DNA of 64,000 bases from an uncultured Thermoplasmata archaeon (lineage in GTDB: Archaea > Thermoplasmatota > Thermoplasmata > Lutacidiplasmatales > UBA184): contig CAVZDD010000005.1 in the NCBI GenBank assembly GCA_963773945.1, positions 768,503-832,502 of the forward strand, read 5' to 3'. The notes beneath the pieces are model-generated. The model had not been told where the DNA came from, made no database searches, and saw only the letters and a program-made list of their open reading frames with translations. Both the position numbers and the translations under genes were made by a program. Shown in pieces: positions 6,888 to 36,131 of the stretch; positions within the stretch are counted from its first letter, which is position 1; the number at the start of each line of letters is the position of its first letter.

Positions 6888-6980
6888 CGCGCTTCCCCCC
6901 GAGGATAGAGGGAGCGTCCAGCATATCAACGTAGGGACCGAGTTCGAGTCGAGGGGGCCCGACGGCGGCCCGAGGGCGCC

Positions 6981-17686: not shown

Positions 17687-18598
17687 TTGAGAGACATCCA
17701 CGCGATGGAGCCGACGGCCGGTCGGTTCGAGCTCCACAAGGTCGGCGTTTCCGGGATCCGGAAGCCGTTAACGATTCGGAGACCGGACCGTCTCGTCACT
17801 CTAACAACCACGCTGGACGTCGCGGTCGACCTCCCGGCAACCCGGAAGGGTTCCGACCTCTCACGCAACGCGATCCTCCTCGCCGAGATCGTCGACGAAA
17901 CGGCGGTGCGGCCCGTCCCCAGCCTAGAGTCTGCGTGTGTCGCGATTGCCCGCGAGCTGCTCGAGCGGCACAAGTACGCCCGAGTCGCCACCGTGGACGC
18001 CTCGGCGGAGTACTTCCTCCGGCGGGGCATCGCGGAAGAACGCAAGAGCTTCGAGGACTACACCCTCCTCGCGTCCGCCCAGAGCGTCCGATCCGGCCCC
18101 GATGGACCGATCACGGTGACCAAGTCGATCGGGGCCGAAGCGGTGGGCATGACCGCCTGTCCCTGCGCGATGGAAACGGCCCGCGTAGCTCTTTCGGAGG
18201 AATTCCCGCTCTTGCGCGACCCCTCGATGAAATCGATGCCGATGATCACCCACAACCAGCGGAACCGCACCCGGCTGATGTTCGACCTGGCCGACAACGT
18301 TGAGATCGAAGTCGACGACCTCATCGACACGATCGAAGCCGCCCAGTCGAGTCCCACGTACGCGATCCTCAAGCGCGGCGACGAGGCGCAGATGGTGATT
18401 CAGGCCCACAAGCACCCCAAGTTCGTCGAGGACGTGCTCCGGGACTTGCTCCGGCGGGTCGCGACCGGGTTCGCCCAAGTGCCGGACACCGCCTTCGTCC
18501 GAGCCCGTACGGTGAGCGAGGAATCGATCCACAAGTACAACGTGGTCGCGGCCCACCAGGCATTGCTGGGCGAGTTGCGAAACACCTCGGCGGCGTAG
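17687..18598 (+). CDS. mptA: GTP cyclohydrolase MptA (FolE2/MptA family)
   Basis: 303 aa. The N-terminal region and the conserved Cys/His/Glu pattern (TACPCAMET) are typical of type-IB GTP cyclohydrolase. Confidence 0.8.
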   Translation: MRDIHAMEPTAGRFELHKVGVSGIRKPLTIRRPDRLVTLTTTLDVAVDLPATRKGSDLSRNAILLAEIVDETAVRPVPSLESACVAIARELLERHKYARVATVDASAEYFLRRGIAEERKSFEDYTLLASAQSVRSGPDGPITVTKSIGAEAVGMTACPCAMETARVALSEEFPLLRDPSMKSMPMITHNQRNRTRLMFDLADNVEIEVDDLIDTIEAAQSSPTYAILKRGDEAQMVIQAHKHPKFVEDVLRDLLRRVATGFAQVPDTAFVRARTVSEESIHKYNVVAAHQALLGELRNTSAA

Positions 18599-21180: not shown

Positions 21181-21875
21181 GTGGCCCGGTGACGATCCGG
21201 CTGGACAAGGTCCGTCGAGTCTATCATGCCGGAGAGCCGGACGAGGTTCGCGCCCTGGATGGGGTGGACCTCGCCATCGCTCCGGGCGAGTACCTCTCTG
21301 TCGAGGGACCTTCCGGCTCTGGCAAGACCACGCTCCTGAACCTGTTGGGCCTGCTGGACGTTCCGACCGACGGGCACGTCCTCTGGCAAGGCACCCCGGT
21401 CGAGCGGTTCGCGGAACGCGAGCGGACGCGCCTGCGTCGGACTGGCATCGGCTTCATCTTTCAACGATTCTATCTTCTGCCCACCTTGACCGCCCTCGAG
21501 AACGTCGAACTGCCGCTCCAGGCCCAGGGAGTCCCCGGGTCGGAACGCCGACGCCGGGCGAGCGCCCTGCTGGCGCAGGTCGGCCTCGCGGACCGGGAGC
21601 GGTCGTTCCCCCACCAACTGTCCGGCGGCGAGGAGCAGCGCGTCGCAATCGCCCGGGCGTTGGCCAATTCCCCGCAGCTGCTGCTCGCGGACGAGCCGAC
21701 GGGCGAACTCGACTCGGTCCGGGCTCAGCAGGTTCTCGACCTCCTCGAGGTGGCCCACCAGAGCACCGGCGCCGCGGTCGTCGTCGTGACCCACAACCCA
21801 ACGGTCGCGGCCCGCGCCGCGCGGCACCTCACGATGCGCGATGGTCGAATCGTCGGCGATACCGCGGGACGGTAA
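21177..21875 (+). CDS. ABC transporter ATP-binding protein (MacB/LolD-like)
   Basis: Walker [10 protein letters not shown], signature LSGGEEQR, Walker B LLLADEPT. Confidence 0.9.
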
Positions 21876-21879
21876 CCCG

Positions 21880-23658
21880 ATGGCCCGGATTGCCATTCTG
21901 CTCAACGACCGCTGCCACCCGAAGGAGTGCCAGTGGGAATGCCAAGCGTACTGCCCGCCGGTCCGGATGGGCCAGGAGTGCATTATCGAGGGACCCCTCG
22001 GCAAACCGATCATCTCCGAAACGCTGTGCATCGGCTGCGGGATCTGCGTCCACAAGTGTCCCTTCGACGCCATCAAGATCCTCAACACGCCCGAGGCCGA
22101 CGAGGCGGAGATCGTGCATCGCTACGGGTACAACGGCTTTCGACTGTACCGTCTCCCGTTGCCTGCGCCTCAGGGGATCGTGGGATTGCTGGGTCCCAAC
22201 GGTACGGGGAAGTCGACCGCGCTGCGGATCCTCGCCGGCGCGGAGGTTCCGAATCTCGGTGCCTATGACCGGCCGGGCTCCTGGGAAAACGTGGTCGAGC
22301 ATTTCCGGGGCACATCGCTGCAGAGTCACTTCCAGCGGATCGCCCGGGGGGAGCTACGGGCCGCGATCAAGCCGCAGTACGTCGACCAGCTCGCGGCAAC
22401 GGGGCAGATTGTCTCCGACTACGTGGGGGGGACCGGCGGCAATGCGTCCACCGCGCTCGCGTCCGTCGGGCTGGCCGGGAAGGAATCGAGACCCGTCAGC
22501 GAACTTTCCGGGGGCGAACTCCAGCTCGCGGCGATCGCTCGCACGCTCGCGACGGAGGCGGACCTGTACCTCTTCGACGAGCCGTCGAGCTACCTCGATA
22601 TCGTCCATCGACTCGAGATCGCCCGGGTTCTCCGCCGCCTGGGCCAGGTGAAAAGCGTGCTCGTGGTGGAACACGACCTCGCGCTGCTCGATTACCTGGC
22701 CGATAAGTCACACCTGCTCTATGGCGAGGAGGCGGCCTTTGGGGTTATCTCGCACCCGCTGCCCATGCGAACGGCGATCAACACGTATCTCACGGGCTAT
22801 CTGCGGGACGAGAACGTACGCTTCCGGACCGAGGCGATCCGCTTCACGGCCCACCCGCCCAAATCGGCCGCCTTCCGGAGTGCCAAGGTGGTCTTCGGGC
22901 CGATGGAGAAACAGTACCCCTCTTTCCGGCTCCGCGTCACCGGGGGCACGCTGCCGAAGGGGGAGACCATCGGGATCGTCGGCCCCAACGCGACGGGCAA
23001 AACCACATTCGTGAAGATGCTGGCCGGAGTCGAGCCGCCGACCTCCGGGACGCCTCCGAAGGGCGTGACGGTGAGCTACAAGCCCCAGTATCTCAAGGCG
23101 ACGCAGGCCGCCAGCCTGAGGGAGCGGCTCGTCGCCCTGGCCAGCGACCCCGAGTTCGACGTCGGCGCGCTCGAGAAGGAACTCATTCCCGCGCTCCGGC
23201 TGGACGGCGTGCTCGATGTGGCGCTTCCGGATCTTTCCGGCGGAGAGCTCCAGCGGGCTGCGGTCGCGCTCTCGCTGGCGCGCCGGGCCACGCTCTACCT
23301 GCTGGATGAGCCGTCGGCCTACCTCGACGCCGACGAACGAATGAACATGGCCCGATTGATCCGACGGCGGGTGGAACACGAGAGCGCCACGGCGCTCGTC
23401 GTCGACCACGATGTCTATTTCCTCGACCTGGCGTGCGATGGCCTCATGGTGTTCGTGCCCGACGGGCCCGACGGAAGCGCGGGACGTGGAGAGGGTCCCT
23501 TCGCGATGCGGGAGGGGATGAATCGCCTCCTCCGACAGGTCGAGGTCACGTTCCGGCGAGATCCCGAAACGCTCCGGCCGCGGATCAACCAGGAAGATTC
23601 CGTGCTCGACCGGGAACAGCGGGCCAAGGGGGAGTACTACTACGAAGCCGTCGCCTGA
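21880..23658 (+). CDS. abcE1: ABCE1 (RNase L inhibitor / ribosome recycling factor Rli1)
   Basis: N-terminal Fe-S domain CHPKECQWECQAYCP and CIGCGICVHKCP, followed by two NBDs (GPNGTGKST, GPNATGKTT, two LSGGE signatures). Confidence 0.9.
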   Translation: MARIAILLNDRCHPKECQWECQAYCPPVRMGQECIIEGPLGKPIISETLCIGCGICVHKCPFDAIKILNTPEADEAEIVHRYGYNGFRLYRLPLPAPQGIVGLLGPNGTGKSTALRILAGAEVPNLGAYDRPGSWENVVEHFRGTSLQSHFQRIARGELRAAIKPQYVDQLAATGQIVSDYVGGTGGNASTALASVGLAGKESRPVSELSGGELQLAAIARTLATEADLYLFDEPSSYLDIVHRLEIARVLRRLGQVKSVLVVEHDLALLDYLADKSHLLYGEEAAFGVISHPLPMRTAINTYLTGYLRDENVRFRTEAIRFTAHPPKSAAFRSAKVVFGPMEKQYPSFRLRVTGGTLPKGETIGIVGPNATGKTTFVKMLAGVEPPTSGTPPKGVTVSYKPQYLKATQAASLRERLVALASDPEFDVGALEKELIPALRLDGVLDVALPDLSGGELQRAAVALSLARRATLYLLDEPSAYLDADERMNMARLIRRRVEHESATALVVDHDVYFLDLACDGLMVFVPDGPDGSAGRGEGPFAMREGMNRLLRQVEVTFRRDPETLRPRINQEDSVLDREQRAKGEYYYEAVA

Positions 23659-24507: not shown

Positions 24508-25296
24508 TTAGGTCTTCTCCGGCGGTGAGGAGGAGATGTCGGTCGGGGTCTCGGTCTCTTCCTCTTGACCGGTCTTCGTCGGCGGGACCTTCCGGGTCTT
24601 GTCCATCGCCCGGGGGCCGACGGTGGCGATCATGTAGAGCTCGGCGATCGTGAGGAGGATCAGGCCCACGGTGGCCGCCACGAGGTCGTACGGTTGGGCG
24701 ACCCGGACGTAGAAGTTCTCACTCCAAAGGGTGTTGCCGGCCGGATTCTCGAGGTAGGCGTGGACCTCGTAGACGCCCTGAAGGTACCACTTGAACTCGG
24801 TCAGGTCGTACGTCATACTGATCGTTCCGCCGGATGCCCCGAAGGGCGTGGACTCGACCTGTTGCTTCGTGTAGGCCGGGAACCCGAGGAATAAGATTAC
24901 CAGAAAGGCCTGGGAAACCCCTGTCCCGGTAGTGGGGCCCGTGAAGACGAACTGCACCGTCGCGATAGTAGAGAACGTCCAGCTGATCGCAGCAGCGTCG
25001 CTGACGGCGGTGTCGGTGTTGACTCCGTTCCACAGCACCATGCCCGTGACTCCGGTCTGGGCCGGAATAAGGGTCGAGCTTGCGCCACGGGCTTGGGACA
25101 GCACGCCCACCCCGTACGGAGCGAGAAAAACGACCGCCAACGCCACCGAGAGCAAGGGAAGGAGTCTCACTCCTCTCCGGGCCGAAACTCGAAAAGACTG
25201 CCGCACGGCGCGAGCAGTCTCCTCGGGGCTAAGAATGTATGGGTTCCACCTTCGGCGAAGCTTCCGACCGTCAGTACCGAGGCATCGTAGGGTCAA
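24508..25296 (-). CDS. hypothetical secreted/membrane-anchored protein
   Basis: Signal/TM-like LLPLLSVALAVVFLA, several N-x-S/T sequons and a C-terminal TM helix. Start uncertain; the track start overlaps the next gene. Confidence 0.45.
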   Translation of the reverse strand: MTLRCLGTDGRKLRRRWNPYILSPEETARAVRQSFRVSARRGVRLLPLLSVALAVVFLAPYGVGVLSQARGASSTLIPAQTGVTGMVLWNGVNTDTAVSDAAAISWTFSTIATVQFVFTGPTTGTGVSQAFLVILFLGFPAYTKQQVESTPFGASGGTISMTYDLTEFKWYLQGVYEVHAYLENPAGNTLWSENFYVRVAQPYDLVAATVGLILLTIAELYMIATVGPRAMDKTRKVPPTKTGQEEETETPTDISSSPPEKT

Positions 25297-26770
25297 TTTT
25301 CTCGGCCCAAGCCTCGATCCCGCCCTTCAGACTCGATACGTGCGTGAACCCCAGCTCGAGGAGCATCTGAGTGCCCTGGGCCGACCGGCGCCCGGAGTGG
25401 CAGTAGAGAACCACCTCCCTGGCATGCGCGAGTTCGGTGACGCGTTGCGGCAGCTCTCCGAGCGGGATCAGCGTCGCGCCCGATAGGTGGGCGATCTCCC
25501 ATTCTGACGGGTTACGTACGTCGATCACGAGCGGCGGGTCCTCCCCCGAGAGCCGGGCCGAGAGAGCTTCCGGCGTGATCTCGGGGATCTCGTCGGTCGC
25601 TGCGAGGTCTCCGGCCGCTGTGACGCCGCAGAAGGCCGGATAATCGATGAGGCCGGTCTGCGTCGGATGCGTACCGCAGATGACGCAGTCCGGATTCTTC
25701 CGGAGGCGAAGCTCGCGGAACCGCAGGGTGAGGGCATCGAACAGCAGCAGCCGGCCGATGAGGGGCTCCCCCACGCCGAGGAGGAGTTTCACCGTCTCGG
25801 TGGCCTGGATCGTCCCGATGAGCCCCGGTAGCACGCCGAAGACCCCGCCCTCGGCGCAGGACGGGACGAGACCCGGAGGTGGAGGTTCGGGGTACAGGCA
25901 CCGATAGCACGGGCCCCGGCGCGAGTCGAAGACGCTCGCCTGCCCCTCGAAGCGGTATATCGAACCGTAGACATTGGGTTTTCCGAGAAGAACCGAGGCA
26001 TCGTTCACGAGGTATCGCGTGGGAAAGTTGTCTGTTCCGTCGAGGATCACGTCGTACGGCCGTAGCGTTTCCATCGCGTTCTCGCTCGTGAGATGTTGCT
26101 CGTAGGTCCGGACGGTCACATCCGGATTCAGGTCCGTGAGCCGGTCCCGCGCCGCCTCGAGCTTGGGCCGTCCCACGTCCCGGGTTCCGTACATCACCTG
26201 GCGTTGCAGGTTCGAGGCCTCGACCCGGTCGAAATCGACGAGACCAATCTCGCCGACGCCGGCCGCCGCCAGATAGAGGGCGGCGGGGGAAGCGAGTCCA
26301 CCGGCGCCGACCAGCAGAACCTTCGACGCGCGGAGCCTGCGCTGACCCTTCACGCCGACTTCTGGCAGGAGGAGGTGCCGACTGTACCGTCGCATCTGAT
26401 CCCGGGTGAGCGGGGGACCTAGCCCCTCTGCGTCCGAGTTCAAACTGACGAGAGGAGCGGGACGGCCCGCGGAGCGAACCGACTCCGCAGGGGAACCGCC
26501 GGCGATCGCGGGGACGATGCTAAGGACGTCTCCCGGGTGAACGGGAGTTGCTTCCTGCTGGAGATACCGTACATCCTCGTCGTTCAGGTAGACGGTGACG
26601 AAGTTCCGGAGCTGGCCGGCGGTACCATAGAGATGCTTCTCGAGCCCGTGATGCTCCCGTACGAGTCCCCGGAGGACTTCGCCGACCGTGGACCCTTCCG
26701 CTTCGGAGACGGAGGCGCCGCCGGTGAAACTGCGAAGGGGAGTCGGGACTTTGACCTGCACTTTCGACAT
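25271..26770 (-). CDS. MoaD/ThiS-like ubiquitin-fold domain fused to MoeB/ThiF-type E1 and C-terminal rhodanese
   Basis: The first 92 aa are MoaD-like and end ...VPAIAGG. They are followed by an E1 Rossmann motif (LLVGAGGLASPAALYLAAAG...DFD..E.SNLQRQ), zinc CxxC pairs (CYRC, CVIC) and a rhodanese active-site loop (YCHSGRRS). Confidence 0.85.
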   Translation of the reverse strand: MSKVQVKVPTPLRSFTGGASVSEAEGSTVGEVLRGLVREHHGLEKHLYGTAGQLRNFVTVYLNDEDVRYLQQEATPVHPGDVLSIVPAIAGGSPAESVRSAGRPAPLVSLNSDAEGLGPPLTRDQMRRYSRHLLLPEVGVKGQRRLRASKVLLVGAGGLASPAALYLAAAGVGEIGLVDFDRVEASNLQRQVMYGTRDVGRPKLEAARDRLTDLNPDVTVRTYEQHLTSENAMETLRPYDVILDGTDNFPTRYLVNDASVLLGKPNVYGSIYRFEGQASVFDSRRGPCYRCLYPEPPPPGLVPSCAEGGVFGVLPGLIGTIQATETVKLLLGVGEPLIGRLLLFDALTLRFRELRLRKNPDCVICGTHPTQTGLIDYPAFCGVTAAGDLAATDEIPEITPEALSARLSGEDPPLVIDVRNPSEWEIAHLSGATLIPLGELPQRVTELAHAREVVLYCHSGRRSAQGTQMLLELGFTHVSSLKGGIEAWAEKIDPTMPRY

Positions 26771-26824
26771 GGGAGGAAGTGTCCCCGTGGGCCGGCTGAT
26801 ATTACTCCCTCCCTTACCCATTCT

Positions 26825-27295
26825 TCACCTCGACGCGGTTTCTAAGCGCTCCGCGGTCCACGACACGGGGGAGAATCGGCGCAGGTCGGGGTCGAGCTCG
26901 AAGGCCCCGATGTCGCCGGCCCGTCCGTGATCGACCGCAAGCACGAGGTAGGTGTACCAAGGCCAAGCATGCTCTTGGTCGAAGAGCGACGGAACGGCCG
27001 GGTGGTCCGGATGCGAGTGGTAGAATCCGACGACCGCTTCTCCCGTTCCTTCGAGGGAACTCTCGAATTGGCGGAGCGTTTCGGGTGGTATCACGAATCG
27101 GCGGCCCCGAGGGCCTTCCACTTCGTTCTCCATCGGCGTCACTCGAACGAGTCGCCGAATAGGGTGAGTCTCGCCCGCCGGCTCCCGCGCCACGAGGAAG
27201 CCGCAGCACTCCTCCGGGTAGGTGGCCTCCGCGTGACGGCGGATTGTTTCTACGAGTTCGGGGGAAAGGGAGACGTTCACGGAGCTTCCTCCCAA
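26825..27295 (-). CDS. JAMM/MPN+ metalloprotease (Mec+/CysO-peptidase-like)
   Basis: EECCGFL...GFYHSHPDHPAVPSLFD contains the E...HxHx7Sx2D JAMM motif. Confidence 0.8.
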   Translation of the reverse strand: MGGSSVNVSLSPELVETIRRHAEATYPEECCGFLVAREPAGETHPIRRLVRVTPMENEVEGPRGRRFVIPPETLRQFESSLEGTGEAVVGFYHSHPDHPAVPSLFDQEHAWPWYTYLVLAVDHGRAGDIGAFELDPDLRRFSPVSWTAERLETASR

Positions 27296-28257
27296 TGCCG
27301 CTCGGAAAGGTAGCGGTCTCCCCCATCGGGGAGGATCGTCACCATGACGGCCGGAACGCTGAGCGTTGCGGCGATGGAGAGCATCGCCGCGACGACCGCG
27401 CCGGACGAGGTGCCCACGAAGAGCCCCTCTTCACGGGCGAGTCGACGGGTCATCAACTGGGAATCTTCCGTGGACACCCGAACTGTTTCGTCAATCCACC
27501 GTTCATCGTAAGTCCCCGGCCGCAGGGCGGTGGGGAGGTGTTTCAATCCCTCGATACCGTGCATGGGTCCTTCCGGCTCCACCCCGATGACCCGAACGTT
27601 GGGGAATACCTGCTTTAGGAAACGGCCGGCGCCCGAGATGGTCCCGCCTGTCCCCACCCCCGCTACGAAGTGGGTCACGCGTCCCGACGTTTGCGTCCAG
27701 ATCTCGGGCCCGGTGCCGGTGAAGTGCGCTTCGGGATTGGCCGGATGATTGTACTGGTCGGGGTAGTAGTATCGCCCCGGCTCGGCGGTGGCGCGTCGTC
27801 GGGCTTCGCGTTGGGCCCCATCGGTTCCTTCCGCAGGATCGGTGAAGAGAATCTCGGCGCCATAGGTCCGGAGTCGCTGCACCCGCTCGGGACTCGCGTT
27901 GCGGGGAAGGCAGACCGCGACCGGGAAGCGGAGGCGCGCCCCTAACATCGCATAGGCGATGCCAGTGTTGCCGCTCGTCGCGTCGATGAGAGTCCTGCCG
28001 CCTCCCAGCGCGCCGGACGCAAGGGCGCTGCGGACAATCCCGAACGCGGCCCGGTCCTTGACTGAACCCGTGGGATTGAGGAATTCGGCCTTCCCCCAGA
28101 GCTCGTGCGTGGGCGGAAGGTCGTGACCGATCCGCTCCAGTCGGAGGAGAGGTGTGTTCCCCACGGTGCCAATCGAAAGGTCCGGTCCGGTCGGTGCGGG
28201 TCCCAACGCGGCGTTGGCCGCCGTGGAGTCTACCGAAGCTGGATGAGATGCGTGCAC
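27277..28257 (-). CDS. cysM: PLP-dependent cysteine synthase (CysM/CysK family)
   Basis: PLP lysine motif SVKDRAA, glycine loop GTGGT, 326 aa. Operonic with the JAMM and MoaD-E1 genes. Confidence 0.85.
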   Translation of the reverse strand: MHASHPASVDSTAANAALGPAPTGPDLSIGTVGNTPLLRLERIGHDLPPTHELWGKAEFLNPTGSVKDRAAFGIVRSALASGALGGGRTLIDATSGNTGIAYAMLGARLRFPVAVCLPRNASPERVQRLRTYGAEILFTDPAEGTDGAQREARRRATAEPGRYYYPDQYNHPANPEAHFTGTGPEIWTQTSGRVTHFVAGVGTGGTISGAGRFLKQVFPNVRVIGVEPEGPMHGIEGLKHLPTALRPGTYDERWIDETVRVSTEDSQLMTRRLAREEGLFVGTSSGAVVAAMLSIAATLSVPAVMVTILPDGGDRYLSERHWEEAP

Positions 28258-28407
28258 GTCCGTCCCACCTCAGGGACGGCGCCGCTCCAATAAGCCCTGC
28301 TGGTGTCCGGTTCAGCGAGTCCGATATCGACGCCCTCGTCGCCTGGGTCGCCCGCAACCCGCCCGCTCGAACAGCCCTAAGGAATCCGACTAAGCCAACC
28401 CGTTCTC

Positions 28408-28437
28408 AGGCGGGGGGCAACCCCCGCCTATTTTTCC
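28408..28437 (+). terminator. GC-rich hairpin (9-bp stem, GCAA loop) followed by T5 run
   Basis: aggcggggg-gcaa-cccccgcct-atttttcc in the cysM / small-ZnF divergent intergenic region. Confidence 0.3.
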
Positions 28438-28483
28438 TGACACCGCGGATCTGCTGCGGTCAGATCCACGAAGCCGGGGGGCC

Positions 28484-28846
28484 GTGCCCTTGACGCGACG
28501 GACAATCCTGGCGTGTCCGGTCTGTGGACTCGAGATCAGCGGCTACAAAGGCGCGCTGGTGGACCACCTTCGCGACGTTGACGGACGCGAGGACGCCGAA
28601 ATTCTTGCGGTCTTCGTCGTCCGAACCCGGCGCACGACCCTCTCCCTCTCACCCCCGGACCCGCCGAAAACCGACGGTGGACCAATCACCATCGGGCCGG
28701 ACATGCCGGCGCGCGACGCCGGTCGGATCTACCGGGCGCAGTCCCGGGTGAGCGCGAAACCAAAGGCCGTAGGAGGCGGCCGTCGGAGGAAGTCGACCTT
28801 CGAGAGCTCGTCGCCCGGATCCCGTGGCGAGCTCGAGGTCGCATAG
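28484..28846 (+). CDS. hypothetical small protein with CxxC motif
   Basis: GTG start, 120 aa, LACPVCGLEISGYKGALVDHL. No recognisable family. May belong to the host or to the adjacent element. Confidence 0.45.
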   Translation: MPLTRRTILACPVCGLEISGYKGALVDHLRDVDGREDAEILAVFVVRTRRTTLSLSPPDPPKTDGGPITIGPDMPARDAGRIYRAQSRVSAKPKAVGGGRRRKSTFESSSPGSRGELEVA

Positions 28847-29083
28847 AGACGGGCCGTCCTCAGCGCCACTTCCCTCCGAAGCAGGAGGAAGGGTGCCAGC
28901 TCATCCGGCAGGTCGTGACGATCGAGACCTGGACTGATAATCAGCATGGAACCTGGACTCTTGAACCTTCGGCACGACGGCGCGGGCCACGCACGTGAGT
29001 GTGTGTACAATCCCTGGGGCTTGGCAACCCCAGGAGCCGCCGTGTTCGCAAACCGCGGGGCAGCGGGCTTAGAGGACGGTCCA

Positions 29084-29118
29084 TCGATTTTCCTCTGTTT
29101 CTCTCTCGATTTTCCTCT
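29084..29118. repeat. 13-bp direct repeat tcgattttcctct x2 (22-bp period)
   Basis: Copies at 29084-29096 and 29106-29118, in the lower-GC left-end intergenic region of the element, 55-90 bp upstream of ORF 29171. Confidence 0.5.
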
Positions 29119-29170
29119 ACATGGAGGAGCAACCGACGGTCCGCGATATTCACACACACCAGGAGAAACG

Positions 29171-29527
29171 ATGGCACCACGAAGAAAACTGGACCGAAGG
29201 AAGCTCGAGCTGATGGCCGAACGAGTAAGGGACGCGGGGACCGCGGGCGTGCACCGCTCGATCCTGGCGGTGGCCTATGGGATCTCCCCGTCGACGCTGC
29301 GCGTCGAGTACGACGCGGTCCTATTGGACGTCGCGCCCGACCTCTACCGGCACGGCGCGACGTACTACGTCGACTCGGACAAGAGCGCGCAGCTTCTCAA
29401 CGCGCTCGTCCTCGAACGACAGGGGGACGTGGGGGGTGCGTTCGAGATCCGCCAACAGCTCCGCACGGGGCGGGCCCCCGTGACGGTCGGGCAGCGTACC
29501 CTCGACTCCGAGGAGGCGGGCTCGTGA
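29171..29527 (+). CDS. hypothetical protein (element ORF)
   Basis: ATG at 29171 with GGAG 7 nt upstream. 118 aa, MAPRRKLDRRKLELMAERVRDAGTAGV... The basic N-terminus may bind DNA. Confidence 0.5.
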   Translation: MAPRRKLDRRKLELMAERVRDAGTAGVHRSILAVAYGISPSTLRVEYDAVLLDVAPDLYRHGATYYVDSDKSAQLLNALVLERQGDVGGAFEIRQQLRTGRAPVTVGQRTLDSEEAGS

Positions 29528-30048
29528 GCGCCCAATCCGTAACATCCTCTCGGCGGAGGCGTGCAACACTTCGCCGTCGGGTCTGCGAGGCCTGCGGAAT
29601 CGACTTCCGCGCCCGACGAAGGAGCGCCAGGTTCTGCTCCACTCGGTGCAGGGTCAGCTCCATGAGGTGGCGGCGTTCCGACCCACTGCTCCGTTTGATC
29701 GCCGCCGAACGGTTGCTGCGCGAAGCGGCCGCGGCCTTTCGGGCCCGTGTCGACCACGACCCGGGAGATTCCGCTCAGATGAGAGCCGAAGCGAGGTTGG
29801 GGGCGCGAGTCTACCAGCTGGCGCTCGAGGTATGGGTACGATCGGCACACACCGCTGGCATCCCCCTCAGTGACTTAGGCGGCGCGCCCAAAAACAACCC
29901 CGAGCTTCGGGAACTTTGGATCCTGGGAGGCATCCCCTCGGCCCGATTGAGTGAATTTATCCAATTCGTCCAGCGGAGGTGTCTCACTGTCGCTGACAAC
30001 CGATTCAACATGAACCCACTCGGGCCGAAGTGGGAGGCGAGCTCGTGA
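29524..30048 (+). CDS. hypothetical protein with CxxC...CxxC zinc-binding motif (element ORF)
   Basis: GTG start overlaps the upstream stop (GTGA). Contains RRRVCEACGIDFRARRRSARFCSTRC. Confidence 0.45.
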   Translation: MSAQSVTSSRRRRATLRRRVCEACGIDFRARRRSARFCSTRCRVSSMRWRRSDPLLRLIAAERLLREAAAAFRARVDHDPGDSAQMRAEARLGARVYQLALEVWVRSAHTAGIPLSDLGGAPKNNPELRELWILGGIPSARLSEFIQFVQRRCLTVADNRFNMNPLGPKWEASS

Positions 30049-30404
30049 GGCGTCGGGGACCGCCGCGGCGGCGGGGCGACAGGGCGGACTGGAGCGCGCT
30101 CCAACGGGAGCTCTCCAGGACGGAAAGGTCGGTTCGTCGGCTCGGGCCGGTGTTGGACACGCTGGAGGAAAGATACTCTCCCGCGAAGAACGCTCCCAAC
30201 GTGGGAGCGTTCTCTCCCCGACCCGAGACCTACACGGTACAAGTCTGTACCTGGTGCCATCACAGGGCAGCCCACCACCGCCGAGGGGATTGCGACGTGG
30301 AAGACCCAAGGACGTTGACTGGTCGGTGCACGTGCAAAGCCGCCGCGGTACGTGACAAGAACGGGAGCTGGGTCATCGTGGTCCGCCCGAAGGGCCAGCC
30401 ATGA
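30030..30404 (+). CDS. hypothetical protein (element ORF)
   Basis: ORF of 124 aa, basic, with Cys/His cluster CTWCHHRAAHHRRGDC. Start uncertain. Confidence 0.35.
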   Translation: MGGELVRRRGPPRRRGDRADWSALQRELSRTERSVRRLGPVLDTLEERYSPAKNAPNVGAFSPRPETYTVQVCTWCHHRAAHHRRGDCDVEDPRTLTGRCTCKAAAVRDKNGSWVIVVRPKGQP

Positions 30405-30411
30405 AGACCGC

Positions 30412-30606
30412 TCAGGCGAACCGCGCGATCATGTCGCCCCACTTCTGGTTCAGCACGTCGATTCGGTGGAAGAACTCCCCGATGTCGGTCAACATCTTAT
30501 CCCGCTCGACGGGGGACTCGGGGACCTCTATCTCGTTCAGGATGCGCAACATCTCGTCGGCGAGCTCGTTCATCTTCACGACGGGGGAGCTCCCGTTCTC
30601 GGGCAT
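30412..30606 (-). CDS. hypothetical small protein (64 aa, element ORF)
   Basis: ATG..TGA on the reverse strand in a lower-GC patch. MPENGSSPVVKMNELADEMLRILNEIEVPESPVERDKMLTDIGEFF... is acidic and protein-like. Convergent with the upstream + ORF. Confidence 0.4.
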   Translation of the reverse strand: MPENGSSPVVKMNELADEMLRILNEIEVPESPVERDKMLTDIGEFFHRIDVLNQKWGDMIARFA

Positions 30607-30631
30607 GGAGCCCGCGATGGCGGGGATGTAG

Positions 30632-30814
30632 ATGGCGAAGAGGGGGACCAGGTGGACCGTCACGGTCACGTTCGACTTCGATGAGGAGAGCTTCACCTTC
30701 ACGACCGACACCCGCTTGCTGCTCGACCGGCTCAGGCTGCTCCTGGACCACGACGACTTCCCGAACTGCGTGGTGACGATCTCGAAGTGGACGCCCCAGA
30801 ACTTGGACGGGTAG
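30632..30814 (+). CDS. hypothetical small protein (60 aa, element ORF)
   Basis: MAKRGTRWTVTVTFDFDEESFTFTTDTRLLLDRL... with regular codon-3 GC. Confidence 0.4.
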   Translation: MAKRGTRWTVTVTFDFDEESFTFTTDTRLLLDRLRLLLDHDDFPNCVVTISKWTPQNLDG

Positions 30815-30820
30815 TAGCAG

Positions 30821-30970
30821 ATGACGCTGAACGTTCTCAGCAAGGAGCTCCAGGTGGTCGCCGCCAAGCACGGGTACGTCGTCACGAAGCAGTACAACCT
30901 GGTCCGCCTGAACTCGGTCACGGTCTACGTGCGGCTCGACAAGACCCACGCCGGGCTCGTGGAGAAGTAG
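30821..30970 (+). CDS. hypothetical small protein (49 aa, element ORF)
   Basis: MTLNVLSKELQVVAAKHGYVVTKQYNLVRLNSVTVYVRLDKTHAGLVEK. The stop abuts the resolvase start. Confidence 0.4.
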   Translation: MTLNVLSKELQVVAAKHGYVVTKQYNLVRLNSVTVYVRLDKTHAGLVEK

Positions 30971-31567
30971 ATGTTGGAGCCGGCGACCCACGCGAGCCGC
31001 CCGCTCGTCGTGTTCGTGCCGACACGCGCCACGACGGCGCTCCTCTTCCTGAGGTGCAGCACGTCCGAACAGGACTACACGCGACAGCGTGAGGACCTGG
31101 AGCGCGACGCCGCACGGCTCGGTTGGGAAGTCGTCGGCACGATCGGTGCGTACGTCTCGGGCACGTCGAACGAGAACGAGCTCAACGAGCTCCGCGCCCG
31201 GGCGGCCCGGCACGAGTTCGATGTCTGCATGGTGTGGGAGCTCTCCCGGCTGTCCCGGAGAGGCCCGGCGGCCGTTTTCGAGCTCCTGACGCAGCTCGAA
31301 CGATTGGGCACGCGCGTTTGGTCGCACTCCGAGACGTGGCTCGACCAGGACGGCCCTGCGCGTGAGCTCCTGATCTCGGTCTTCAGTTGGTGGGGCGCGA
31401 TGGAGCGCGCGGCCATTTCGGCGCGCACAAAATCCGGCATGGCGTCAAGGAAGGCGCTTGGGATCCACGTCGGTCGGCCGCAGGGCGCGAAGGACCGGCG
31501 GCCCCGCAAACGCCGAGCGACAAGGGGACCCTTCTCCCGGCTTGAGTTCGCGTCGGGGTCTCGATAG
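30971..31567 (+). CDS. serine recombinase (resolvase/invertase catalytic domain)
   Basis: LRCSTSEQ nucleophile-Ser motif near the N-terminus, ELSRLSRR and ERAAISARTKSGMASRKALGIHVGRP motifs of the resolvase catalytic domain. Short basic tail; no obvious C-terminal HTH. Confidence 0.75.
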   Translation: MLEPATHASRPLVVFVPTRATTALLFLRCSTSEQDYTRQREDLERDAARLGWEVVGTIGAYVSGTSNENELNELRARAARHEFDVCMVWELSRLSRRGPAAVFELLTQLERLGTRVWSHSETWLDQDGPARELLISVFSWWGAMERAAISARTKSGMASRKALGIHVGRPQGAKDRRPRKRRATRGPFSRLEFASGSR

Positions 31568-31664
31568 CAAATCGGGGGCAGAGCTGAGGGGTCCCCCTTT
31601 TTGGAGCCCGATTTTCCTACCCCTTTTTCTACGGGTTGGTGCGTGGGCTTGCTTGCTACTACCC

Positions 31665-31970
31665 ATGCGGAGAAAGAACAAGGCGTGTCCTGAGGGCTGC
31701 AATCGCTTATTCAGCGGCCAAGGTCTCGTCGGTCACTTACTTTTTGTTCACAAAATCAAGCTGGTTCGGACGATCCCGACCCCCCCCACCCCCGTGCCAT
31801 TGAGATATGTTCTTCCCGAAGACGAGCCGCGCCTTCACGATGAAATCCGGATGGCAGCGAGGCCGTCGTTCACCTCCGCGCCGGCTTCGCCACCGGCACG
31901 GGCCTCGCCGCCCTCCGTGAGATCACACCGCTTCCCAGTCTCTATCGACTTGGGGGAGGCTCCTCGATGA
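31665..31970 (+). CDS. C2H2-type zinc-finger protein (element ORF)
   Basis: MRRKNKACPEGCNRLFSGQGLVGHLLFVHK gives C-x3-C-x11-H-x4-H with conserved hydrophobics. Pro-rich C-terminus. Lower-GC upstream region. Confidence 0.55.
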   Translation: MRRKNKACPEGCNRLFSGQGLVGHLLFVHKIKLVRTIPTPPTPVPLRYVLPEDEPRLHDEIRMAARPSFTSAPASPPARASPPSVRSHRFPVSIDLGEAPR

Positions 31971-32329
31971 GCGGCACGGAGCTCGCGACGGGCCGAAACC
32001 GCAGGGTGGCAACCTTCTCTCCATCGGCCTTGGAGCAATCCCGCGATCATTTGCTTCAGGGTTTACTCGAACAGGACCGGGTGTTCCTCGAGGCGTGCGC
32101 GCAGACGGGCACCGACCCACGCGCATCCGTGCGTGTAGCCGTAGGGGGGCCTGGGCTCGTCGCGGTCTCAATCAAGCCTGAGTGCGTCGCGAATCTCCTG
32201 CGGTTTGTGCGGAGCGCGCCCCGGCGACTCGAGCTCGATTTCACGGAAGCGCCGGTCTTCGACGACGAGCCCACGCCTTCACTCCCTCCTCCCTCACTGT
32301 CCAAACCAACGGACAAAAACAGGAGTTGA
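31967..32329 (+). CDS. hypothetical protein (element ORF)
   Basis: ATG overlapping the upstream stop (ATGA). 120 aa, no recognisable motifs. Confidence 0.4.
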   Translation: MSGTELATGRNRRVATFSPSALEQSRDHLLQGLLEQDRVFLEACAQTGTDPRASVRVAVGGPGLVAVSIKPECVANLLRFVRSAPRRLELDFTEAPVFDDEPTPSLPPPSLSKPTDKNRS

Positions 32330-32333
32330 AAAC

Positions 32334-32639
32334 ATGGCAAGACTGAGCTACGCCTTTCCCGATGGAGAGTTCGACCGACCGATGGGACCGATGGCGACGC
32401 TGGGCGACCCGCTCCGAAGTGAGCTGTCAATCGGCGCACGCCGGGCGTGGGACAGTCCCACCGGGCAGGCGCGACGCGAGCAACTACGCGCCGCGGCCAG
32501 AGGCCCCGCTGGCGAGATGAGCCGGGCGATCGCGCCGTTCCGGGCCCAGATCTCGAACGCCTTTCGGCGTGTGGGTCCGTCGCTGTCGACCGCCTACCGG
32601 TCGATCTGGAGCGGCTACGGATACGAGAGCCCCTTCTGA
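32334..32639 (+). CDS. hypothetical protein (element ORF)
   Basis: ATG at 32334 with AGGAG upstream. 101 aa, MARLSYAFPDGEFDRPMGPMATLGDPL... Confidence 0.4.
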   Translation: MARLSYAFPDGEFDRPMGPMATLGDPLRSELSIGARRAWDSPTGQARREQLRAAARGPAGEMSRAIAPFRAQISNAFRRVGPSLSTAYRSIWSGYGYESPF

Positions 32640-32671
32640 ACGGAAAGGTGAATCGTAAGGAGGTTCAGAGC

Positions 32672-33070
32672 GTGGGAGCCGGAGGGGTTGTCGCCGGTGG
32701 CCTTGTCGCGGGCGGGATCGTGTACGGAGTGGGACTCCATTTCGGCTGGTGGGAACTACCGACGTGGCTCCAGCCACCGGCCGCGCCGGCCGCGGCGTCG
32801 CAAGCCTCAGCGGAGGGAGCACCGCCGGCGCGATACGGACTGAGGTTCACCCAAGAGGGGCAAACGAACACCGATGTAGGTCCGAGCGCGCGCTACCCCG
32901 GAGCAACTGAGCGCCGCGCAAGGTTCAGCTACGTGCAATCTCCGCCGTTCGTGGTCGAGCCCGAGGGCGCCGCCGCGGCGCGTAGGTCGTTTCAGGCCAT
33001 AGAATCCGGACGGACGAGCCAAGAAAACGCCGTCGTGCTGCGAAGATTATTCGCTACGCCGTTCGGCTGA
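32672..33070 (+). CDS. hypothetical membrane protein (element ORF)
   Basis: GTG start with GGAGG upstream. Gly-rich N-terminal TM helix VGAGGVVAGGLVAGGIVYGVGL. Confidence 0.4.
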   Translation: MGAGGVVAGGLVAGGIVYGVGLHFGWWELPTWLQPPAAPAAASQASAEGAPPARYGLRFTQEGQTNTDVGPSARYPGATERRARFSYVQSPPFVVEPEGAAAARRSFQAIESGRTSQENAVVLRRLFATPFG

Positions 33071-33090
33071 GTGTGGCACATTGTGGCACA
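33071..33090. repeat. tandem 10-bp repeat gtgtggcaca / ttgtggcaca
   Basis: Two adjacent copies, 9/10 identical, directly after the stop of ORF 32672..33070. Confidence 0.5.
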
Positions 33091-33297
33091 ATCACTCGAT
33101 GATCGACAAAGGGGTCGACTTGCACGGGGTCGTCTTCGGCGTCGAGAACGTGGCGCCGGTTGTTCCGGTGAGCTCCGTCGCGGCGCCCCCACCAACGACA
33201 GGTTGATCGGAGCTCTCTCGGAAAACGTATGAACTACTTTCGCTTCCTCGATTCAGTGTCGACTGTCAGCGGCACGGGTGATGCGCCTCGGCGCCTA

Positions 33298-33321
33298 CCC
33301 GCGATTCTGACAGATCGCGGG
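33298..33321. promoter_or_regulatory. perfect 8-bp inverted repeat cccgcgat-N8-atcgcggg immediately upstream of integrase start
   Basis: The repeat lies 12 bp upstream of the TTG at 33333 and is flanked by ggcgcc-tc-ggcgcc. Confidence 0.35.
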
Positions 33322-33332
33322 CGGGCGCCCCC

Positions 33333-34517
33333 TTGACTTCTGAGTTGGTCCGCGGCGTTTCGGGCGAGTTCTGGACCTCGTCCCACGATGGGACCAGGTT
33401 CCGGCTGTGGGTCCCGACCGAAGCAACCCCGGCGCCGACGCCGTCCAAATCCACGCTGGCCTTCGAGACGATCCTGCCCTCACCGTCGTCACTCTCCCGA
33501 CTTGTCGAGGTGAAAACGGCCGGTCCCCCGCCACCTTGTACGCCTTCATGCGCATCACCGACAGAAACAGTTTCATCAACCGTTTCGAGGAAGTTCGTGC
33601 CCTACAAGGAGCGCGGACTGTTCGAGCAGGTAGAGAAGTGGTCACGAGAACAGGGTGGAGACGAGGGAACGGTGGACACCCGGGTCGACCGGGTCCTTCT
33701 GTTCAGCCGCTCGGTCGCCACCCTTGGGTTCCCCCAACCGTACAGCGGGCGCGACGTAACGCGCTCAATGGTGGAGAGGTTCAAACACGACGGGATCTCG
33801 CCGCCGACGCCGCACAACATCCAGCACCATTGCGCCGGGCGGAGGCTCGCCCCGAACAACATTCACAACACGCTGCCCGAGGTTCGGTCTTGGCTAATCT
33901 CGTGCGGCAACCCGCTGGCCGCGGATCGCCGACTCTGGAAGATGGTCGGCCGCGCGCAGTCGCTCTACGTGGACCAGATGAACGAACCACGCGAGCTACG
34001 CGAGTACCTGAACGCGATGGCGCACGACGCGCGCCTCCAGGCGGAGGTCATCCTGATGGGGCCGGTGCAGATCCGTACCGAAGCGGCGCTGCACGTCCCA
34101 CCGGAGAACCTGTCTCTTTCGGCAGACCCAAGAGTGTTGTCGACCGTTCTGGTGTTGGACGAAGTCAAGTTCGGGGAGTCGTACCGGACCGGCGTCCCTC
34201 CGCAGGTCGTCGCGGCGCTGATGAACGCGGTAGTGGGGATGGAGCCGGGCAAGCCCATCTGGAGGACGTCGACGTCCGACTTCCGCCGCAGGTACAAGTG
34301 CGCGATCGCCGCCCGTGGGCTGAAGTACTACGCCCCCCGAGAACTCCGGAGTTCGGTCGCGACGTTCGCGGTGGAGGCAGACGTCCGCCCCCAGGTTCTA
34401 CAGGGGCAGATGAACCACGCCGAGTACGGAACTACGGCGAAGTTCTACGCCAAGGTCCGGCCGAAGACGCGCCTCGTGGACCTGGAGAAGTTGGGCCGCT
34501 ACCTCATGGAGGAGTAG
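33333..34517 (+). CDS. int: tyrosine recombinase / integrase
   Basis: C-terminal PRELRSSVATFAVE...LQGQMNHAEYGTTAKFYAKV gives the R...H-x-x-(E/R)...Y tyrosine-recombinase catalytic pattern. The coding frame was confirmed by codon-3 GC against the two other frames. The N-terminal ~100 aa is low-complexity, so the true start may lie downstream. Confidence 0.8.
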   Translation: MTSELVRGVSGEFWTSSHDGTRFRLWVPTEATPAPTPSKSTLAFETILPSPSSLSRLVEVKTAGPPPPCTPSCASPTETVSSTVSRKFVPYKERGLFEQVEKWSREQGGDEGTVDTRVDRVLLFSRSVATLGFPQPYSGRDVTRSMVERFKHDGISPPTPHNIQHHCAGRRLAPNNIHNTLPEVRSWLISCGNPLAADRRLWKMVGRAQSLYVDQMNEPRELREYLNAMAHDARLQAEVILMGPVQIRTEAALHVPPENLSLSADPRVLSTVLVLDEVKFGESYRTGVPPQVVAALMNAVVGMEPGKPIWRTSTSDFRRRYKCAIAARGLKYYAPRELRSSVATFAVEADVRPQVLQGQMNHAEYGTTAKFYAKVRPKTRLVDLEKLGRYLMEE

Positions 34518-34538
34518 ACCATGCCCGGGCGGCGTCGT

Positions 34539-35186
34539 TCACCTCAACTGAATCAGGTGCGTGCACGTCAGCCCGCCTCGCGTGATCGAATCCTCGAGCT
34601 GCAGGCCCGACTGTCCGAGAAGGGCCTCGGTGAGATTCTTGTCGAAGACCTCGCAGAGCAGGTAGGCGTGGGTCAGTGCGGTGTGCCGGAACACGCAGTT
34701 GGTCCGGTTGATCCGAACCTCTCCGTCCGGCAGCGTCTGAACCTGGGCACGGAAACCGAGCTTGTTGAGGGCGTCCGCCAGCGCGACGATCCGTTCCTCC
34801 CTCGTTCCCTCGGGAGGGATTTCCGCCGCGATCTGACGCGCCATGCGACGGGCGGCCTCGGCGAACAGCGCGGAGGTGTATCCCTCTCCTTCCTGGGCGA
34901 GGAGTTCCTCCATGACGGAGTCGAGCAGGAACTCGTACCGACGGGGAAACAGATCCTGGCCCTGGGAGGTGAGCACGTACCGCTTTTTCGGGCGGCCGAC
35001 GCCTTCGCGATGGAAGGAAGGACTGACGAGGCCCCGATCCTCGAGGCGGTCCAGGTGCCCCCGAACGGCGCTCTCCTGTATTCCGAGGTTACGAGCCAAG
35101 TCGCGCGCGCTGCGGGGGGAGACGGCGAGCGCCTCGATGATCTTGCCGCGGGTGTTGTCGGTCAGCATCAGGTCGCCAGTTGCCAT
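34539..35186 (-). CDS. winged-helix transcriptional regulator with Cys-rich C-terminal domain (SufR-like candidate)
   Basis: N-terminal wHTH (IIEALAVSPRSARDLARNLGIQESAVRGHLDRLEDRGLV). C-terminal CVFRHTALTHAYLLC...GGLTCTH offers 3 Cys plus His ligands. Divergent from sufC. Confidence 0.6.
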   Translation of the reverse strand: MATGDLMLTDNTRGKIIEALAVSPRSARDLARNLGIQESAVRGHLDRLEDRGLVSPSFHREGVGRPKKRYVLTSQGQDLFPRRYEFLLDSVMEELLAQEGEGYTSALFAEAARRMARQIAAEIPPEGTREERIVALADALNKLGFRAQVQTLPDGEVRINRTNCVFRHTALTHAYLLCEVFDKNLTEALLGQSGLQLEDSITRGGLTCTHLIQLR

Positions 35187-36075: not shown

Positions 36076-36131
36076 GGAGCACCGGCGACCCAACTCGGGA
36101 ACCAGGGGCGTCCGAGGATTCGAACCTGTCC

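Follow-up and report, generated by a model that had tools for sequence, protein, structure and literature searches.

How can a sulfur carrier be activated through its C-terminal Gly-Gly when that Gly-Gly lies inside a larger protein? The question is raised by a locus of an uncultured Thermoplasmata archaeon (NCBI GenBank assembly GCA_963773945.1), of which we analysed a stretch of 64,000 nucleotides on contig CAVZDD010000005.1 (positions 768,503 to 832,502 of the forward strand, hereafter the window). Three co-directional open reading frames (ORFs) on the minus strand, at window positions 25271-28257, encode a CysM-like cysteine synthase, a JAMM metalloprotease and a single 516-residue protein in which a ThiS/MoaD-like carrier domain continues into an E1 enzyme and a rhodanese. 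It is likely that this locus is a bacterial-type CysO thiocarboxylate module residing in a Thermoplasmata archaeon, with the carrier made as the N-terminal part of the E1-rhodanese that activates it and processed stepwise.

Architecture of the operon

The fusion gene (25271-26821, minus strand) is a single ORF of 516 codons, in whose product Pfam recognises ThiS at residues 23-109 (E 7e-14), ThiF at 146-379 (E 1e-82) and Rhodanese at 416-507 (E 1e-20). The chain begins with a CysO-type ubiquitin-fold carrier domain (residues 18-109, 26495-26770) that ends in VPAIAGG. Its last two residues, Gly108-Gly109 (26495-26500), are the predicted site of cleavage and activation, with the scissile bond after Gly109. 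A hypervariable, predicted-disordered linker (residues 110-137, 26411-26494) then leads to a MoeB/ThiF-type E1 adenylyltransferase domain (residues 138-400, 25622-26410) and to a C-terminal rhodanese domain (residues 416-516, 25274-25576) with the active-site Cys474. The start of the gene is ambiguous: it is either ATG 26821, with GAGGTG 4 nt upstream, or ATG 26770 (Met18), which is the choice of most homologues. The VPAIAGG motif thus occupies residues 103-109 of the full ORF, or residues 86-92 when counted from Met18, with the Gly-Gly at 91-92.

Upstream on the same strand lies the JAMM/MPN+ metalloprotease (26825-27295; Pfam Prok-JAB, E 2e-22), which has 156 residues if translated from TTG 27295. 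GTG 27280 is its likelier start, giving 151 residues; it overlaps the cysM stop codon as GTGA and is preceded by GGAGG 8-12 nt upstream, an arrangement that suggests translational coupling between cysM and the JAMM gene. The first gene of the cluster (27277-28257, minus strand) encodes a pyridoxal phosphate (PLP)-dependent cysteine synthase of 326 residues (Pfam PALP, E 8e-72) whose best NCBIfam model is cysM, TIGR01138.

These assignments agree with what a sequence-only reading of the window had proposed: an in-frame passage from the carrier into a MoeB/ThiF-type E1 and a rhodanese with an active-site Cys, which Pfam and Cys474 bear out, and an adjacent JAMM protease and PLP cysteine synthase, borne out by Prok-JAB, PALP and the catalytic motif read directly from the protein.

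A CysO-type carrier with an internal Gly-Gly

A carrier profile built from 22 domains (alignment A2) was searched against all PDB sequences. CysO of Mycobacterium tuberculosis (3dwg_C, E 9e-26) ranked first, followed by CysO of Amycolatopsis (4n6e_B, 5e-25), and both align with the profile end to end, stopping at the terminal GG. Far weaker matches were obtained with SAMP1 (1e-6 to 8e-10), ThiS (0.01) and MoaD. The AlphaFold model of the carrier domain, with a mean predicted local distance difference test score (pLDDT) of 87.6, has the beta-grasp topology. Among PDB structures, Foldseek again ranks CysO highest (4n6e_B, 3dwg_C and 3dwm_A), with template-modelling (TM) scores of 0.84-0.90 and 40-43% identity. 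Judged by profile and modelled fold, the N-terminal domain is a CysO-type beta-grasp sulfur carrier. The sequence-only reading had described the first 92 residues as a MoaD/ThiS-like ubiquitin fold ending in VPAIAGG; the Pfam ThiS call, the CysO profile matches and the modelled beta-grasp fold all concur.

The Gly-Gly is the most telling element of the junction. G108 and G109 do not vary among 26 aligned fusions of 65-87% identity (26/26), so that the conservation of the motif among orthologous fusions, on which the same reading depended, is observed. Both glycines are also present in all 83 loci checked in a scan of species genomes, and GG or SGG is kept at the junction in 15 of 16 distant fused representatives. 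The roughly 28 residues that follow have no conserved column in the 26-sequence alignment and vary in length; across fused loci the linker measures 7-38 residues. In the full-length model the pLDDT is 81-89 across most of the carrier and falls below 50 at residues 105-132.

As translated, the Gly-Gly is internal, at residues 108-109 of 516 with 407 residues after it, and not terminal as is demanded of a CysO-type carrier. A free Gly-Gly would be gained only following proteolysis. An internal translation start yielding a free E1 was considered and rejected: the sole Met of the linker region, M143, is unconserved among the 26 aligned sequences. A search of the window for a stand-alone carrier found no ORF of 55-140 residues ending in GG.

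The E1 and rhodanese domains

The E1 domain carries a GAGGL nucleotide loop, two CXXC motifs (CYRC at 305-308 and CVIC at 379-382) and the crossover-loop residue Cys322, all invariant in the 26-sequence alignment. In the rhodanese domain the active-site loop reads YCHSGRRS, where C474, G477, R479 and S480 are invariant. The closest solved proteins to the E1 are Uba4, ThiF and MoeB. Two NCBIfam models come near and remain below their cut-offs, namely MoeB with rhodanese, PRK07411 (502.6 bits, cut-off 633), and MoeZ, PRK07878 (483.3 bits, cut-off 647).

An E1 domain followed by a C-terminal rhodanese is the architecture of MoeZ/MoeZR. In these proteins NYRD replaces the first CXXC and the second CXXC is mostly absent, while the presence of both CXXC motifs defines MoeB/MoeBR (Voss et al. 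2011, PMC3227635). Having kept both, the E1 of the window is MoeBR-like, and its identification as MoeZR is ruled out. The match to the CysO/MoeZ/Mec+/CysM route claimed by the sequence-only reading holds for the set of components and for the gene order, but not for the class of E1.

The JAMM protease and CysM

The catalytic motif of the JAMM protein is complete. It consists of Glu28 (in EECCG) and of HSHPDHPAVPSLFD, an HxHx7Sx2D motif at residues 93-106 (H93-S-H95-PDHPAVP-S103-LF-D106) that supplies H93, H95, S103 and D106. The best PDB match is 2kcq_A, of the Mov34/MPN/PAD-1 family (E 4e-20). Enzymes of this kind have been linked to the release of fused carriers several times. JAB domains were predicted to free ThiS/MoaD domains fused to other proteins (Iyer et al. 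2006, PMC1779556), DRJAMM cleaves MoaD-MoaE (PMC8832034) and HvJAMM1 cleaves linear SAMP1 fusions, according to work cited in PMC8832034. JAMM enzymes cut linear ubiquitin-like (Ubl) fusions whatever residues come next (PMC8832034). QbsD acts on QbsE, and an equivalent CxnF step on CxnE has been proposed (PMC5925218). In MoaX the internal GG must be cleaved for activity (PMC4326299).

CysM scores 335.7 bits against TIGR01138, under the 394.2 cut-off. Against the PDB it scores highest with enterobacterial CysM (241 bits) and with that of M. tuberculosis (3dwg_A, 188 bits), to which it is 37% identical. The PLP lysine is K67; the Lys aligned with K51 of the M. tuberculosis enzyme, whose reference sequence we checked against 3dwg_A, is invariant in 60/60 operon-linked CysMs. 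At the position of M. tuberculosis Arg220, which is reported to bind the phosphate of O-phosphoserine, 58 of the 60 have a Lys (K239 in the window CysM), a residue that is basic but not Arg.

Fused and split loci

In a collection of 5.8 billion proteins, at least 119 of the 120 best homologues (65-100% identity) carry ThiS, ThiF and Rhodanese together, and the named proteins among these 120 are all labelled 'Thermoplasmata archaeon'. The single exception, the two-domain P0030 (390 aa), was considered as a naturally unfused Thermoplasmata homologue and set aside: its gene is cut by the contig end, starting 43 nt from it.

An exhaustive profile search of 1.84 billion representative proteins added many clusters with less than 50% identity that also join a carrier domain to an E1. 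The order carrier-E1-rhodanese is found in P0121, P0139 and P0126 by Pfam, and in P0122, P0131, P0174, P0201, P0128 and P0198 by profile match and sequence. Pfam also delineates carrier-E1 in P0135 and carrier-rhodanese-E1 in P0124. In two cases the protease itself joins the chain. P0136, from Teredinibacter waterburyi (WP_188152452.1), is a single JAB-carrier-rhodanese-E1 polypeptide by Pfam. P0152, from Pseudomonas sp. (WP_457339519.1), appears to be JAB-carrier-E1-rhodanese: Pfam recognises JAB, ThiF and Rhodanese and makes no ThiS call, and the Ubl domain, ending in SGG, is placed from the sequence. By source name the distant fused proteins come from Gemmatimonadales, Evtepia (Clostridia), T. 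waterburyi and Pseudomonas sp.

We then ran the carrier profile on one genome per GTDB species. Among at least 595 confirmed matches the best 80 loci were kept; they come from Thermoplasmata, Acidobacteriota (Vicinamibacteria, Bryobacterales, Terriglobia and Blastocatellia), Gemmatimonadales, Chloroflexia, Ignavibacteriales and others. The five components (CysM, JAMM, carrier, E1 and rhodanese) were located in each locus by tblastn, with a check of reading-frame continuity, and 82 distinct loci were counted. The order cysM-JAMM-carrier-E1-rhodanese is widely kept across them. Carrier and E1 are fused in 43 loci and split in 39; where they are split, the carrier gene comes immediately before that of the E1. 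The fused state is found in each of the 12 Thermoplasmata loci and in 31 of the 70 bacterial ones, the latter mostly from Acidobacteriota, with Gemmatimonadales and Chloroflexia in addition, and usually ordered cysM-JAMM-carrier-E1.

The presence of a JAMM gene tracks the fused state. It is found within 700 nt upstream, on the same strand, in 43/43 fused loci (12/12 in Thermoplasmata and 31/31 in bacteria) as against 22/39 split loci. CysM comes next upstream in 8 of the 12 Thermoplasmata loci, in 29 of the 31 fused bacterial loci and in 23 of the 39 split ones. The link to cysteine synthesis drawn by the sequence-only reading therefore holds for 8/12 Thermoplasmata loci, CysM being missing or decayed in the other four.

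A neighbour-joining tree of the E1-rhodanese region, made without support values, places the Thermoplasmata sequences in one all-fused clade beside bacterial sequences. Among bacteria, fused and split loci interleave even between close relatives: L029 (fused) stands beside L027 and L037 (both split), and other fused/split neighbours are L068 beside L048 and L062 beside L051. This interleaving points to fusion or fission events that recurred while the system was kept. With its counterparts in Acidobacteriota, Gemmatimonadales and other bacteria the window E1 shares 64-74% identity, which suggests transfer between the domains of life and leaves its direction unproven. Judged from these loci, the fusion is one state of a fused/split polymorphism common in soil bacteria. 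With 31/70 bacterial loci fused and both states present among close relatives, the proposal that the fusion is a hard-wired invention of the archaeal lineage had to be dropped.

Even the split carriers seldom end at the Gly-Gly: 38 of the 39 run 1-32 residues past it (for example R, AA, MY, NGDR or SSLRCICS), which suggests that trimming after GG is a general need in the clade. Several post-GG tails of split acidobacterial CysO homologues are rich in cysteine (SSLRCICS, SSFRCICS, SVTCCICS, LNLRCICR, ...CRTMCCCPACRCC, ...PVGCCPPACGR and LPRENMGACCQ). They occur in loci L039, L040, L041, L044, L074, L075 and L082, just after the carrier match, at about 6265-6370 in most.

Proposed mechanism

The substrate of an E1 is a free C-terminal carboxylate, and a carrier still held in a peptide bond, uncleaved, therefore cannot be activated. 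The conservation of the Gly-Gly, the disposable spacer after it, the repeated fusion and fission and the post-GG tails of split carriers together suggest that the carrier has one and the same function whether fused or free, and that it must be released after the Gly-Gly. The JAMM protein is the natural cutter. It is the sole component that always adjoins the fused genes (43/43), it is part of the same chain in P0136 and P0152, and members of its family were shown or proposed to carry out the reaction (PMC8832034, PMC5925218). Cleavage by this enzyme after GG would be the simplest explanation, and the inference has good support.

The sequence of events could be as follows. The precursor is made from one ORF, as seen in the sequence. 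The adjacent JAMM would then hydrolyse the bond after Gly109, giving a carrier of about 92 residues with a free Gly-Gly carboxylate and, as the other product, an E1-rhodanese with the disordered linker as its N-terminal tail. The E1 would adenylate the C-terminal glycine of the carrier. By homology with MoeZR, MOCS3 and Uba4, the acyl-adenylate would be turned into a thiocarboxylate by the persulfide form of Cys474 in the rhodanese or by free sulfide. CysM is expected, from its M. tuberculosis counterpart and CysO, to form an aminoacrylate from O-phosphoserine or O-acetylserine; attack by the thiocarboxylate and an S-to-N shift would yield carrier-Gly-Gly-Cys. As in the case of Mec+, the same JAMM would cut after GG a second time, releasing cysteine and recycling the carrier. 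The protease would thus have two jobs with one bond specificity, and the fused and split forms would be functionally interchangeable.

We hold the processing of the precursor and its role as a carrier to be probable; that cysteine is the sole product is somewhat less so.

Genomic setting

The window shares 69-81% nucleotide identity with contigs of Thermoplasmata metagenome-assembled genomes where they align in this region. An ABCE1/RNase L inhibitor (RLI) homologue (21841-23658) and a pair formed by a Rad50-like SMC ATPase and an Mre11-like phosphoesterase (47581-51638) support its archaeal origin. In the closest relatives, the genes sufB-sufS-sufC are followed divergently by an ArsR-type helix-turn-helix (HTH) gene, cysM, JAMM, the fusion, an uncharacterised gene, a bPH gene and ABCE1, with an intervening gene before ABCE1 in some loci.

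Directly downstream of the fusion, and overlapping its 3' end by 26 nt, lies a minus-strand gene for a predicted protein of 262 residues (24508-25296) that has no match in a Pfam scan. Its homologues (26-70% identity) follow the fusion in 7/13 Thermoplasmata loci and in no bacterial locus, and the gene is not counted as a component of the system.

The ArsR-type winged-helix regulator (34539-35186, minus strand; Pfam HTH_5, E 5e-10) is the immediate same-strand upstream neighbour of cysM in the closest relatives, whereas in the window an insertion of about 6.3 kb (28261-34547) separates the two. It is possible that this regulator controls the cluster. The closest relatives (L004, L005 and L006) lack the insertion: blastn against them joins window position ~34548 to ~28260. 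An imperfect 34-nt direct repeat (28232-28265 and 34541-34574, 76% identity, with the exact core GTGCGTGCACGTC) brackets it, and the left copy overlaps the start codon of cysM. Within the insertion lie genes for a serine resolvase (30971-31567) and for a phage-integrase-like protein (33333-34517). A tRNA gene as insertion target was considered and discarded, as the 64-kb window has none.

Divergent to the HTH-cysM-JAMM-fusion cluster are the SUF Fe-S genes sufC (35293-36075), sufS (36042-37361) and sufB (37458-38870). Synteny of SufS and SufB with the cluster extends to 10/12 Thermoplasmata loci (L003, L004, L006-L009, L011, L016, L023 and L026). The cysteine desulfurase SufS may be the persulfide donor to the E1-rhodanese, which would be odd for a pathway that makes cysteine.

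Other genes of the window encode a pirin (6171-6929), an acetyl-CoA synthetase (6981-8945), the GTP cyclohydrolase FolE2 (17687-18598) and a class II aminoacyl-tRNA synthetase (59280-61268).

Points against the proposed pathway and alternative explanations

Several points weigh against processing of the fusion for cysteine synthesis. For the fused family, cleavage, thiocarboxylate formation and cysteine synthesis are inferred and not experimental. Our coverage of the genome is 64 kb, so a separate free carrier may exist elsewhere. The fused and split counts are not phylogenetically independent, and the neighbour-joining tree that relates them has no support values. If SufS next door is the sulfur donor of the rhodanese, with cysteine as its source, a futile cycle would result. 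The window CysM is nearer to enterobacterial CysM, an O-acetylserine enzyme, than to that of M. tuberculosis, so that O-phosphoserine and O-acetylserine are both candidate acceptor substrates. Finally, CysM is not adjacent in 4 of the 12 Thermoplasmata loci: none is linked in L003, L007 and L009, and L001 has a relic. There (7218-7478; also in L002) an 81-residue ORF directly upstream of the JAMM gene matches CysM residues 226-313 only, at 41% identity, and looks like a decayed cysM. All four loci keep JAMM and the fusion. The pair can thus persist without a linked CysM, and cysteine synthesis may not be the only use of the module.

The most novel alternative, which we consider doubtful, makes the fusion a zymogen-like switch instead of a neutral variant of gene structure. 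The uncleaved carrier would occupy or block the E1, and cleavage by JAMM would turn on both in a strict 1:1 ratio, the ArsR-type regulator possibly gating the step by sulfur or redox state. Thermoplasmata that lost the linked CysM would use the released carrier for other thiolation or for SAMP-like conjugation. If true, a bacterial-type module would have been turned into an archaeal ubiquitin-like system.

The main role of the module might be general sulfur mobilisation (for tRNA thiolation, molybdopterin or Fe-S related), or Ubl conjugation with JAMM as the deconjugase, on the pattern of haloarchaeal sampylation, instead of cysteine synthesis. The four Thermoplasmata loci that keep JAMM and the fusion with no linked CysM would fit such a role, as would the synteny with SUF genes in 10/12 loci, the invariant crossover-loop Cys322 and the M. 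tuberculosis MoeZR, which serves both molybdenum cofactor and cysteine synthesis (PMC3227635). We nevertheless find it improbable, given that CysM is linked in 8/12 Thermoplasmata and 29/31 fused bacterial loci, that the nearest characterised relatives of the carrier are CysO proteins, and that the cluster has no E2-like or target genes.

No likelier than this is a division of labour in which another protease, or a JAMM paralogue, cuts the precursor after GG, the adjacent JAMM being a Mec+-type carrier-cysteine hydrolase only. JAMM adjoins the fusion in 43/43 loci and a JAB domain is in the same chain in P0136 and P0152; moreover, both reactions break the same type of bond, and JAMM enzymes cut linear Ubl fusions regardless of the next residues. 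These observations outweigh the 17 of 39 split loci that have post-GG tails but no JAMM directly upstream, the characterisation of Mec+ for CysO-Cys hydrolysis alone, and the precedent of MoaX, whose cleaving protease in M. tuberculosis was not identified (PMC4326299).

Quite unlikely, in our opinion, is that the fusion is never cleaved. Its Ubl domain would then serve the E1 as a structural or regulatory add-on, a role proposed for the Ub-like domain of Campylobacter-type ThiF, and some other free carrier would be the substrate. ThiF proteins with an N-terminal Ub-like domain do co-occur with a stand-alone ThiS, suggesting a non-carrier role (Iyer et al. 2006), and we see the genome over 64 kb alone. 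The domain found here, however, is of the CysO type and not of the family 'distinct from ThiS'. The GG at its very end is invariant whereas the residues beyond it vary freely, in sister bacterial lineages a separate gene at the corresponding operon position encodes this domain, and neither the operon nor the window has a free carrier gene.

An assembly, frameshift or lost-stop artefact is dismissed: the uninterrupted ORF recurs in at least 119 independent homologues and in 43 distinct fused loci, of which 41 come from species-level genomes belonging to several phyla.

Comparison with known systems

Processing of the carrier-E1-rhodanese fusion for cysteine synthesis has its nearest parallel in M. 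tuberculosis, where the chemistry of CysO, MoeZR, CysM and Mec+ has been described (PMC3227635). Both systems have the same four activities, JAMM and CysM in one operon, and an E1 with a C-terminal rhodanese. CysO is also the closest characterised homologue of the carrier, at about 42% identity and a fold TM-score of 0.85, both ending in GG. In M. tuberculosis CysO is a free protein that ends exactly at the Gly-Gly, and moeZ lies apart from the mec-cysO-cysM operon. The archaeal locus differs by having the carrier fused to the E1, both CXXC motifs kept (MoeBR-like), a Lys in place of CysM Arg220, and an archaeal host. The fusion appears to be a variant of a known cysteine-synthesis pathway and not a new system, and its principle is well precedented.

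Fused MoaD-MoaE proteins (M. tuberculosis MoaX, Deinococcus DR2607 and Haloferax SAMP1-MoaE) likewise present a carrier with an internal GG on a partner enzyme, where cleavage is needed, and a JAMM/MPN+ protease performs it in Deinococcus (DRJAMM) and Haloferax (HvJAMM1). The partner there is the sulfur acceptor MoaE of the molybdopterin pathway; here it is the activating E1-rhodanese. In QbsE/QbsD (thioquinolobactin) and CxnE/CxnF (chuangxinmycin), extra C-terminal residues mask the GG, which JAMM exposes before activation by E1. The HcyS/HcyD methionine route of Wolinella similarly has a GG-masking tail that is exposed by JAMM. Split relatives of the window locus bear post-GG tails like those of QbsE and CxnE. 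Contrary to QbsE, CxnE and HcyS, whose tails have 1-10 residues, the archaeal carrier is followed by a 407-residue enzyme, and the end products differ.

The sequence-only reading had seen in this operon an archaeal SAMP/UbaA/JAMM-like module. The fold classes and the logic of Ubl, E1 and JAMM are indeed the same as in haloarchaeal SAMP1/UbaA/HvJAMM1, and the carrier model superposes on SAMP1 with TM-scores of 0.86-0.90; the carrier is, however, merely 23-26% identical to it. UbaA is not known to carry a rhodanese domain; SAMPs exist as free proteins that serve in conjugation and sulfur transfer. All three NCBIfam models fall below their cut-offs: SAMP1 at 51.9 bits (cut-off 60), UbaA at 333.4 (450) and desampylase at 69.9 (130). 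With these scores, an E1 64-74% identical to bacterial ones and an operon widespread in bacteria, we reject membership of the haloarchaeal SAMP/UbaA/desampylase system.

Bacterial operons composed of 'ThiS/MoaD, E1+rhodanese, JAB and cysteine synthase' were listed by Iyer et al. 2006 (PMC1779556). Other fusions also place an N-terminal ubiquitin-fold domain on an E1, namely the Campylobacter-type Ubl-ThiF, the Pelobacter Ubl-ThiF (also linked to a cysteine synthase) and the Ubl-E1-TBP of Thaumarchaeota. Their Ubl domain is described as distinct from ThiS and usually stands beside a free ThiS; no rhodanese was described in them, and no argument for JAMM or GG cleavage was made. Our literature search returned no paper on a CysO-type carrier fused to an E1-rhodanese, and only mycobacterial and comparative-genomics papers near the topic.

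Implications

The locus extends the principle by which JAMM unmasks the Gly-Gly of a sulfur carrier to a case in which the mask is the carrier's own E1. The layout is common, in uncultured Thermoplasmata as well as in Acidobacteriota, Gemmatimonadales and Chloroflexia, and it makes a testable prediction: the neighbouring JAMM should cut at Gly109|Ser110. The all-in-one proteins of T. waterburyi and Pseudomonas sp., which are named and presumably cultured, offer practical systems. The fused proteins are annotated merely as 'MoeB' or 'adenylyltransferase/sulfurtransferase'. As the 'MoeB' label hides the carrier, metabolic reconstructions of soil archaea and Acidobacteriota could miss this cysteine route. 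Altogether, a CysO-type module, otherwise typical of bacteria, is documented in Thermoplasmata.

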